From contig AP024676.1 in assembly GCA_025998955.1 (NCBI GenBank), forward strand, positions 4,331,418 to 4,395,417: a DNA stretch of 64,000 nucleotides. Reading direction: 5' to 3'. Below, piece after piece: positions 32,200 through 33,951 of the stretch. Made by a program: the position numbers and the translations under genes. Each line of letters opens with the position of its first letter. The stretch's first letter is position 1. Below the pieces are notes generated by a model that saw nothing but the letters and a program-made list of their open reading frames with translations, did no database searches and was not told the DNA's origin. The stretch is from Candidatus Roseilinea sp. (GTDB lineage Bacteria > Chloroflexota > Anaerolineae > J036 > Brachytrichaceae).

Positions 32200-32510
32200 G
32201 AAAAGCGTCTGCTCCAGAATGGTTGTCATTGGAACAAGCGGTACCCCTCGACCTCTTCCGCGCCGAGGTTGAAGCCTGGGCGCATCGGCTGGGTGTCACC
32301 CCGCGCCAGATACGTTTTCGTCCGATGAAACGCAAATGGGCCAGTTGTTCCTCGCGTGGCCGGCTTACCTTCGATACCACCCTCTTGCGTCAGCCCGCCG
32401 AGTTTCGCCGCGAGGTGATTGTGCACGAGTTGCTCCATCTCAAAGTGCCCAACCACGGGCCGCTTTTCAAAGCGTTGCTCAAAGCCTACCTGGCAGAAGC
32501 GCAGGAATGA
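32196..32510 (+). CDS. Short M48/YgjP-like metalloprotein, copy A
   Basis: MKRKWASCS, VIVHELLHLKVPNHG (HExxH); ATGA overlap with hsdR. Confidence 0.88.
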
Positions 32511-33475
32511 TGCGGCATCAATGATGCGGCATCGGTTGGAAACCGACGCCGCGGGCATAGGAAGCCCGCGAAGCGGGCTTGATGATGGGAGGCGGGGGAT
32601 GCGGCATCGGTTAGAAACCGACGCCGCGCGCGCAGAAAGCCCGCTTTGCGGGCTTTGTCACCGCAGGCGTGGGATTCTATCCCCCGCCGAAAGGCGCGGC
32701 CGCCATCGCTGCGGCATCGGTTAGAAACCGACGCTGCAGGCGCAGTAAGCCCGCTTTGCGGGCTTTGTCACTGCAGGCGTGGAATTCCATCCCACGCCGA
32801 AAGGAATGACAACGCCAGGCGGGGGATTCTATCCCCCGCCGAAAGGCGCGGCTGTCATCGCTGCGGCATCGGTTGGAAACCGACGCCGCGCAAGGCGGGA
32901 AGCCCGCTTTGCGGGCTTGATTACCGCAGACGGGGGATTCTATCCCCCGCCGAAAGGCGCGGCCGCCATCGCTGCGGCATCGGTTAGAAACCGCGCGCAG
33001 GCGCAGTAAGCCCGCTTTGCGGGCTTTGTCACTGCAGGCGTGGAATTCCATCCCCCGCCGAAAAAAAGCATGACAACGAGAGGTGTAGGATTCCATCCCA
33101 CGCCGAAAGACGCGGCGGCCGTTGCTGCGGCATCGGTTGGAAACCGACGCCGCGCGAGGCGGGAAGCCCGCTCCGCGGGCTTTATCACCGCAGGCGTGGG
33201 ATTCTATCCCCCGCCGAAAGGCGCGGCGGCCGTTGCTGCGGCATCGGTTAGAAACCGACGCCGCGCGCGCGGGAAGCCCGCTCCGCGGGCTTGATGGATG
33301 CGAGGCGGGAGATGCGGCATCGGTTAGAAACCGACGCCGCAGGCGCAGTAAGCCCGCTTTGCGGGCTTTGTCACCGCAGGCATGGGATTCCATCCCCCGC
33401 CGAAAGGAATGACAACGCGAGGCGGGGGATTCCATCCCCATGCTGACGCAGGGATGAGATTCTCTCCCCCGCCTG
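32508..33475 (+). repeat. Composite tandem array of three hairpin modules (A-B-C)
   Basis: A GCGGCATCGGTT-RGA-AACCGACGCCGC x8 (32525,32600,32710,32862,32973,33126,33237,33313); B AAGCCCGC-NNN-GCGGGCTT x8; C GGCGKGGGAT-TCY-ATCCCMCGCC about x10; all in one orientation. Confidence 0.92.
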
Positions 33476-33478
33476 CCT

Positions 33479-33502
33479 GGACAAGCCGAAGGCTTGTCCT
33501 AC
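33479..33502 (-). repeat. GTAG-type hairpin just upstream of tnpA
   Basis: Minus strand GTAGGACAAGCCTTCGGCTTGTCC; GGACAAGCC/GGCTTGTCC perfect 9-bp arms. Confidence 0.7.
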
Positions 33503-33531
33503 ATTACCTGACAGAACAGCATGGAGCAGAC

Positions 33532-33951
33532 ATGAAACGAGCCAGTGCCTTCTATCAGTTGGTATATCACTTCACCTGGAGTACCAAAAACCGCCAGCCG
33601 ATGATCACCCCGGAAGTCGAAGCGCGCCTGTATCCTTACATCGCCTATAAATGCAAAGAACTGGGTTATCGTCTGCACGCCGTCGGCGGGACAGAAGACC
33701 ATTTGCACGTTTTACTCAGCCTGACGCCCACCCAGGTGGTGGCGGAAGTGGCTAAAAATCTCAAAGGCGCATCGTCGCATTACATCAACAAGGAAAGTGG
33801 GCTAGATGCGCTCTTGTACTGGCAGGATGGTTACGGCGTGGTCACATTGCGTCAGTCGGAAATTCCCAAAGTCGTAAAATACATTCAGCAACAGAAGCAA
33901 CACCATCAGCAAGGGACACTCTCTGCCCTTCTGGAGCGTGTTCAGGAATAG
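33532..33951 (+). mobile_element. tnpA: IS200/IS605-family Y1 transposase (TnpA), no TnpB downstream
   Basis: YHFTWSTKNR, EDHLHVL (HUH), LKGASS, WQDGYG, VKYIQQQ catalytic Tyr; GGAG SD. Confidence 0.92.

Follow-up and report, generated by a model that had tools for sequence, protein, structure and literature searches.

Systems that pair repetitive extragenic palindromes (REPs) or bacterial interspersed mosaic elements (BIMEs) with REP-associated tyrosine transposases (RAYTs) are known mainly from Proteobacteria and rely on a distinct class of transposase. In Escherichia coli, the gene for TnpA_REP is bordered by variable tandem BIMEs, the enzyme needs the mismatch in the REP stem for binding, and it can build tandem BIMEs through strand transfer in vitro (PMC3333891). 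Subclass 1.2 of the Y1 transposases has been described as low-copy, without REPs ("REP: no") and without insertion sequence (IS) properties or typical terminal structures, and as occurring mostly in Cyanobacteria and Bacteroidetes, with the motifs WQ, Y---Q--HH (YIKNQKEHH) and an HuH of the form DH[IV]H in proteins of ~148 aa (Quentin et al. 2018, PMC6006769). Here, we report on a 64,000-nucleotide (nt) stretch of Candidatus Roseilinea sp. (contig AP024676.1, positions 4,331,418 to 4,395,417), hereafter the window, in which an array of DNA hairpins lies directly upstream of tnpA, a gene on the + strand (33532-33951) encoding a 139-aa Y1 HUH transposase. We consider it likely that this array is a REPtron/BIME-2-like cluster of mini-elements that belong to the adjacent transposase and have been amplified locally.

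Pattern searches of the window resolve the array (32526-33473, + strand, ~970 bp) into eight head-to-tail units made of three hairpins, A (GCGGCATCGGTTRGAAACCGACGCCGC), B and C, in the order AB, ABC, ABCC, ABC, A'BCC, ABC, AB and ABCCC. All hairpins are on the + strand and they comprise eight copies of A (one of them internally deleted), eight of B and ten of C (the last two degenerate). Hairpin A starts at 32526, 32601, 32711, 32863, 32974 (the internally deleted copy), 33127, 33238 and 33314, with A-to-A spacings of 75, 110, 152, 111, 153, 111 and 76. These spacings, the fixed A-B-C order and the head-to-tail layout are exactly those described in an earlier note on this DNA, and the A/C mismatch that it reported for the intact copies of A is kept in all seven of them, so that the observation of the array is confirmed. 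Two independent hot-spring/mat metagenomes contain unit-specific unitigs that show 0 differences, which means that the units were not invented by assembly; these unitigs are short-read and support unit-specific junctions, not the order of the units.

The first unit, U1 (32526-32600), consists of A (32526-32552), B (32562-32580) and the 5' half of a truncated C (GGCGGGGGAT), which runs directly into the A of U2. U2 (32601-32710) has A at 32601-32627, B at 32637-32655 and C at 32666-32688, followed by a 22-nt inter-unit spacer, while U3 (32711-32862) has A at 32711-32737, B at 32747-32765 and two copies of C (32776-32798 and 32818-32840). Next are U4 (32863-32973; A 32863-32889, B 32900-32918, C 32929-32951) and U5 (32974-33126), in which the internally deleted A from 32974 precedes B (33008-33026) and two Cs (33037-33059 and 33082-33104). 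U6 (33127-33237) carries A at 33127-33153, B at 33164-33182 and C at 33193-33215, and U7 (33238-33313) carries A at 33238-33264, B at 33274-33292 and, again, a truncated half of C. Finally, U8 (33314-33478) contains A (33314-33340), B (33350-33368), C (33379-33401) and the two degenerate Cs (33421-33443 and 33451-33473). All these units are on the + strand. The short units U1 and U7 do contain A and B, as the earlier note had it, but they are not plain A-B, since each ends in a truncated 5' half of C joined to the following A. The units are 77-94% similar to each other in a mosaic pattern, the inter-unit spacer (22 nt here, 17 nt in the related locus L031) is repeated along with the unit, and U3+U4 and U5+U6 form a 263/264-nt higher-order repeat. 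The near-symmetric alternation of unit lengths is real, but this higher-order repeat points to segmental duplication as its origin rather than to a designed pattern.

Contrary to what had been proposed, the hairpins are not unrelated. The loop of C, TTCTA, is the reverse complement of TAGAA in A, the reverse complement of C matches A at 17 of 23 positions (14 of 23 when C is read directly), and the A·C mismatch of A is a G·T in ancestral-type C. Across the wider clade (more than 25 related loci), the gene is bracketed as [A-B>] tnpA [<B-A*], as seen in L031, L032, L034, L035 and L044. Reading inward from either side, there is an imperfect hairpin with the consensus GCCATCGG(T/A)T-RRA-A(A/T)CCGACGGC, a ~10-nt spacer, and then the GC-rich hairpin B with the consensus AA(A/G)CCCGC-NNN-GCGGG(T/C)TT. 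By this comparison, hairpin C is the right-end hairpin A* viewed on the top strand, so that an A-B-C unit corresponds to a left end (A and B) joined to an inverted right end, without the gene. Each unit is therefore best seen as a non-autonomous, tnpA-less mini-element, similar to REPINs (REP doublets forming hairpins) or to miniature inverted-repeat transposable elements (MITEs).

Linkage of these modules to the transposase extends far beyond this genome. Protein and contig searches for TnpA orthologues yielded over 200 close homologues, which share 65-99% identity and almost all measure 139 aa; those that have a source name or were fetched as loci come from metagenome-assembled genomes (MAGs) of Anaerolineae and other Chloroflexota, and none above 45% identity was found in 40 GTDB relatives. 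A/B/C modules are located directly beside tnpA orthologues of 65-99% identity in ~30 Chloroflexota loci with differing neighbourhoods. The closest of these, L025 (99% identity), is the same hsdR...clc locus and has two units. Those with other neighbours have the modules directly 5' of tnpA on the same strand, with four units in L026 (87%), eight in L030 (83%), three in L031 (76%) and as many as 16 across 1.77 kb in L033 (76%), which gives a range of 2 to 16 copies. Since the window has eight units where L025 has two, at a tnpA dS (synonymous divergence) of 0.09, array size expands and contracts quickly. Inverted cognate hairpins flank tnpA in the clade, as in a REPtron, and the window keeps only the upstream side. 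An A-B covariance model has 18 matches in the 64-kb window, every one of them inside 32521-33408, and among more distant TnpA relatives (30-48% identity) 36 of 36 model matches, in 20 loci, are within 550 nt of tnpA. The latter include loci from Ignavibacteria and Bacteroidota, where the flanking hairpin GCCGTCGGTTTCCAACCGATGGC is almost letter-for-letter that of Anaerolineae. The earlier note had proposed checking for co-occurrence with this TnpA clade and for differences in unit number, and both are found.

Both hairpin stems also covary strongly. In an alignment of 95 modules taken from both ends, 93% of the stem cells are paired, 10 of the 18 pairs vary on both sides, and 193 cells show a compensatory change, a result not approached by any of 500 shuffles or by any slid control. 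With few exceptions the compensatory changes keep Watson-Crick pairing, and G·U accounts for only 13 of 1,710 cells. The one systematic exception to Watson-Crick pairing is the mismatch column of A, which is A·C in 66 of the 95 modules and G-C in 26. This A·C mismatch is kept across phyla. The loops of A alternate between GGA, found in half of them, and AGA.

How the modules are distributed within genomes differs markedly. In the source genome (a single contig of 4.67 Mb with 62.7% GC, searched with positions 20584-36583 of the window masked, the window itself being searched separately), fuzzy matching allowing up to 4-6 mismatches and blastn-short found no copies of A, B or C outside the array, and the A-B covariance model gave only weak, diverged matches. 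The array is therefore not a classical dispersed REP family in this organism, which lacks the high-copy dispersed cognate REPs of a REPtron; these are present in G045, G051, G016 and G019. In G045, whose TnpA is 76% identical, there are at least 149 model matches on more than 100 contigs, mostly as overlapping +/- pairs sharing one B, and an alignment of 18 retrieved copies shows A-B-C elements of ~88 nt that stop sharply at the feet of the outer hairpins and have unrelated flanks. G016, G019, G049 and G051 also contain dispersed units or inverted doublets (A-B...B-A), while G041-G044, the genomes nearest to the window, have almost all their strong matches in the array by tnpA, with at most one dispersed unit. 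The system thus exists in an "array only" and a "dispersed" state. Together, the linkage of the modules to tnpA and the dispersed A-B-C mini-elements bear out the idea of a REPIN-like substrate array tied to TnpA, on the test that the earlier note itself proposed.

Forty-three dispersed A-B-type modules occur in G016, for which no cognate gene was identified. The only TnpA of that genome was considered and rejected as their cognate, for it is flanked by a different composite hairpin element: at L133 (G016:C51), a ~110-nt composite hairpin is found in the same orientation on both sides (410-530 and 970-1090) of a subclass-1.2-type TnpA from a related genus.

The transposase gene is intact (Pfam Y1_Tnp, 3e-26), and its product has an HUH motif (DHLHVLL), a WQ motif (YWQDGYG) and a catalytic tyrosine (YIQQQKQHH). 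There is no tnpB near tnpA, and the next gene encodes a ClC channel. TnpA passes the NCBIfam IS200/IS605 equivalog NF033573 (82 bits for a cut-off of 55) and fails REP_Tyr_transpos NF047646 (32.2 bits for a cut-off of 80). In a PDB search, the nearest solved structures are the ISDra2 and IS608 TnpA (E 1e-11 to 1e-9), the HUH and tyrosine align with those of ISDra2, and there is no TnpA_REP chain among the matches at E<=0.01. When the window is compared with L025, dN/dS for tnpA is 0.10; when compared with other orthologues, synonymous sites are saturated and pN is 0.08-0.14. By these values, tnpA is under purifying selection. The gene is single-copy in this genome, where its paralogues are at most 44% identical. 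Alignment of the 3' flanks suggests that the right end has decayed (33952-33985, + strand), with a remnant of the right-end B, CCTGCGTTAGTCACAAC, that aligns to CCTGCGTAGCAGGTT of L031 and would have lost its 3' arm, and this alignment revealed no right-end C/A* hairpin downstream of tnpA, before the ClC channel gene. The tnpA gene as such looks immobile in this genome. That TnpA is "domesticated," as the earlier note put it, goes beyond these data: the protein is IS200-type, some genomes have several copies, and what is seen here is the loss of the right end.

Compared with the E. coli REPtron and its BIME-2 (Ton-Hoang et al. 2012, PMC3333891), the locus shares copies that are similar to each other and vary in number between strains, a conserved stem mismatch, and small units that move while the gene apparently does not. 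It differs by its IS200-type protein, by its third, central hairpin B, by the lack of a dispersed REP population in this genome, by its phylum, and by the absence of the GT[AG]G tetranucleotide, which is found at the foot of neither A nor C. As a tandem cluster it is of BIME-2 type, with alike units, numbers that differ between relatives, and mutually inverted A and C, except for the extra central hairpin B. With the REPIN-RAYT systems of Pseudomonas and Enterobacteria (Bertels & Rainey 2011, PMC3116915), it has in common an inverted doublet (A and C) tied to a low-copy Y1 gene and, in some genomes (G045, G016 and G019), dispersed populations. However, the TnpA class is another one, the central hairpin is conserved, the population in the subclade of the window is the tandem array adjacent to tnpA only, and the distribution is patchy and not clearly vertical.

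As for the protein, it is an IS200-type Y1 transposase with HUH and Y---Q, like those of IS200/IS605 insertion sequences (subclass 1.1), although the multiple near-identical copies with complete ends of such ISs are not seen in this genome. IS608, ISDra2 and the tnpA-less derivatives of the PATE (palindrome-associated transposable element) or MITE type resemble our system by the closest solved structures, by subterminal imperfect hairpins that are presumed recognition sites and by mini-elements that are two ends without a gene; here, in contrast, the ends are mutually inverted and the units form tandem arrays next to a single-copy gene that has no tnpB and a decayed right end. At the motif level, and at that level only, it matches subclass 1.2 of Quentin et al.: our protein shares WQ, YIxxQKxHH, a length of ~140-150 aa, low copy number and closeness to IS200 transposases, and its HUH is DHLH, a near match that is not DH[IV]H. 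It departs from the description of that subclass, in which REPs or terminal secondary structures are not associated, by its conserved flanking hairpin modules and arrays, and by its presence in Chloroflexota plus loci of Ignavibacteria and Bacteroidota. TnpA_Y1 class 3 (e.g., Solibacter usitatus; Quentin et al. 2018) differs in its motifs (NHVH, W[TA], Y----Q) and CnGA foot.

REPs tagged with CGTC (Di Nocera et al. 2013, PMC3733652) have been reported without a dedicated transposase, and they have an unpaired CGTC, an 8-9-bp stem starting with AT, a 4-5-nt loop and a CCA tail. The foot of C reads CGTC...GATG, which is similar, but membership in this group was rejected because CGTC and GATG are here paired within the stem (with a G·T), the loop is 3 nt long and there is no CCA tail. 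Full-text searches, made in an incomplete library, turned up neither these hairpins nor a comparable system in Chloroflexota, and nothing relevant on IS200 in Anaerolineae. What we describe is a REPtron/BIME-type system on an IS200-like subclass that was not known to have repeats, and, as far as these searches reach, it is not yet described for this transposase subgroup or for Chloroflexota.

Could the array act as RNA instead, within the hsd operon transcript or a long tnpA leader, as stacked terminators or insulators, an mRNA stabilizer or a protein sponge, with a regulatory reason for its adjacency to TnpA? We find this improbable. In its favour, the genes on either side point the same way and every hairpin is on their coding strand; B has a GC-rich stem between A- and T-rich runs and in relatives directly follows the stop codon of tnpA; GGA makes up half of the A loops; there is a faint, sub-threshold likeness to rsmX; and IS200 is known to be regulated by 5' hairpins (PMC4513863). 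However, the modules occur in both orientations, around tnpA and genome-wide, and the rarity of G·U in their stems and the almost exclusively Watson-Crick compensation also speak against an RNA. An Rfam scan of 32000-34500 found no family at gathering score, the nearest being rsmX (23 bits for a threshold of 56) and DUF3800-X (20 for 38), and no RNA run that contains the stretch was found. A consensus scan for intrinsic terminators gave 0 sites, on which ground B was rejected as a terminator, and the idea of a CsrA sponge via GGA loops was dropped because the loops switch between GGA and AGA and the modules are on both strands. The alternative offered in the earlier note, a structured RNA array transcribed from the hsd operon, is hence left unsupported.

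An ordinary active IS of the IS200 group, in which array and tnpA transpose together and a reiterated left end is the by-product of aberrant transposition, seems to us equally unlikely. The match to the IS200/IS605 equivalog and the closest structures, ISDra2 and IS608 TnpA, agree with it, as do the different neighbourhoods in which the clade is found and the two to three gene copies of some genomes (L040/L047; L048/L053/L083). It fits poorly with a single-copy tnpA whose decayed right end has no hairpin, with end hairpins that are inverted, unlike the same-strand ends of IS200, with the tnpA-less unit as the entity that spreads in G045, and with the WQ and Y---Q--HH motifs, which lead to a subclass described as without IS properties. 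The higher-order tandem structure and the short-read unitigs that break inside the array might suggest that the repeats are functionally unconnected to tnpA and are simply a minisatellite or an artefact of assembly, but this is hardly credible given the same modules beside tnpA orthologues in more than 25 independent assemblies, a conserved linkage that excludes chance or artefact, the error-free unit-specific unitigs from two metagenomes and the covarying stems.

The likely explanation, in our opinion, remains a cluster of mini-elements that belong to TnpA. We infer that the enzyme binds and cleaves single-stranded DNA and that the imperfect hairpins it reads are A on one strand and C on the opposite one. 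The polarity of the site would come from the conserved A·C mismatch, which is a G·T on the complementary strand, together with the TT-RGA-AA loop, and the GC-rich central hairpin B, with its free loop sequence, would probably be a structural spacer or insulator. The array grew through local tandem duplications, each taking in a unit with its spacer, and through segmental duplications on a larger scale, rather than by repeated precise insertion, because the spacers are repeated with the units and dispersed copies have no conserved flanks. The agent could be TnpA itself, through cleavage and strand transfer in cis, or replication slippage or unequal recombination between hairpins; the sequence fits both alike and cannot tell them apart. 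In this genome, where the element has not spread, tnpA would be stranded at the 3' end of a type I restriction-modification (R-M) operon, beside the array of its own substrates.

Several points weigh against this explanation. The protein is of IS200 type and not of TnpA_REP type, the guide tetranucleotide GT[AG]G is missing, the right end is decayed, and activity here is unproven because there are no dispersed copies in this genome. Slippage alone could be the source of the amplification, and recognition of the hairpins by this TnpA subgroup is predicted from sequence. In addition, the orientation of B is indeterminable because B is a perfect palindrome, and in some R1-rich genomes (G016 and G037, which are incomplete MAGs) no flanked cognate TnpA of this clade was found.

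A fourth hairpin, said in the earlier note to cap the array before tnpA, exists but is not part of the conserved system. It is a 9-bp hairpin (33479-33502, + strand; GGACAAGCC-GAA-GGCTTGTCC+TAC) that is GTAG-tagged on the minus strand and is located within a ~47-nt insertion without counterpart in L025. Fuzzy matching and blastn-short found no second copy in the genome. Because it occurs only once in the genome and has no equivalent in L025, its candidacy as the REP of this transposase was rejected, and it appears to be incidental. The sole sigma-70-like site of the region, TGGACA-16-TACATT (weak, 9/12; 33478-33505 of the window), overlaps this hairpin and is 27 nt upstream of tnpA, and the ~47-nt segment that carries it is missing from L025.

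At the other edge of the array, two 14-nt direct repeats, GCAGGAATGATGCG and GCATCAATGATGCG (32501-32528, + strand), reiterate the region of the 5' arm of the first A. Such "half sites" of 12-14 nt, corresponding to the 5' arm of A and present in up to seven tandem copies, are found just outside the terminal A in several genomes, as short tandem repeats in L035 (2060-2080 and 2735-2790) and L018 (1555-1640), and also in the L042 flank.

The intergenic region (32511-33531) that contains the array separates tnpA from the last gene of the type I R-M operon. This operon comprises hsdS (27081-28568), an open reading frame (ORF) of 248 aa, hsdR (29248-32199) and, on the + strand, a gene for a YgjP-like/M48 metallopeptidase (31980-32510; Pfam PF01863, 2.5e-23). 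The C-terminus of the YgjP-like protein is cut short at the start of the array, and homology to a second copy (36705-37289), which has no array and a longer C-terminus, stops near 32497. This is part of a duplication of the 3' end of hsdR and the YgjP-like gene (31741-32500 and 36466-37231, 4,725 bp downstream), with 98% identity over the first 300 nt and 88% later. Between the two copies are the array, tnpA, clc and a truncated fragment of a gene resembling acetoacetate decarboxylase, and the segment at 36010-36465 also belongs to this enclosed region.

The 248-aa ORF (28505-29251) is situated between hsdS and hsdR, overlaps both, and has a weak likeness to REP-associated tyrosine transposases (NCBIfam 54.6 bits for a cut-off of 80; Pfam Y1_Tnp E=0.04). 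It is a second Y1-like gene, inside the R-M operon, and a 183-aa counterpart is found at the same place in the related locus L020. R-M loci are also common sites of close TnpA orthologues. The gene is found after type I hsdR in the window and in L025, between type III mod and res in L029 (and, as read by eye, in L027), directly upstream of res at a contig start in L043, beside a Mod methylase in L031, and after an MmeI-type enzyme in L026 (=L022). More distant TnpA members have other neighbours, among them gyrA and AlkZ.

The source genome contains two further Y1 TnpA paralogues (44% and ~41% identity, the second frameshifted), and each has its own tandem multi-hairpin array, made of private units beside the gene, at C1:156055-157320 (period 116 nt) and C1:3627217-3628600 (period 182 nt). 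Short copies related to the units of these arrays are scattered in the genome. There is also another composite repeat, related to the unit that flanks the frameshifted paralogue, with nine genome copies (C1: 86020, 361348, 448980, 616221, 839567, 1275621, 2143331, 2143446 and 2530008); a hairpin with a GTAG tag, GTAGCCCGCGAC-TTTA-GTCGC, is part of the 48-nt core of this repeat.

For this genome, the significance of these findings is modest: the array is not a new RNA gene but debris left by a selfish element where an R-M operon ends. Their interest lies in an IS200-type enzyme that would here be paired with a clearly defined, strongly covarying hairpin substrate, one hairpin of which is kept across phyla. 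Across related genomes this substrate is found in three states, as gene flanks, as a tandem array by the gene and as a dispersed population. The published description of subclass 1.2 as having no associated repeats is corrected, and the system is a tractable one in which to study how a Y1 transposase reads an imperfect hairpin (A·C), how tandem arrays of the BIME kind form and how an IS becomes a REPtron. More speculatively, and with somewhat more doubt than belief, we propose that IS200-like subclass-1.2 Y1 transposases may be an unrecognized, cross-phylum REPtron class (Chloroflexota, Ignavibacteriota and Bacteroidota), with A-B-A* and its A·C/G·T mismatch as the substrate, and with arrays that would arise from cis-preferential strand transfer by TnpA and seed dispersed REPIN-like populations. 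If this is true, such a class would represent a surviving intermediate stage between the insertion sequences of the IS200 type and RAYT/REP systems.

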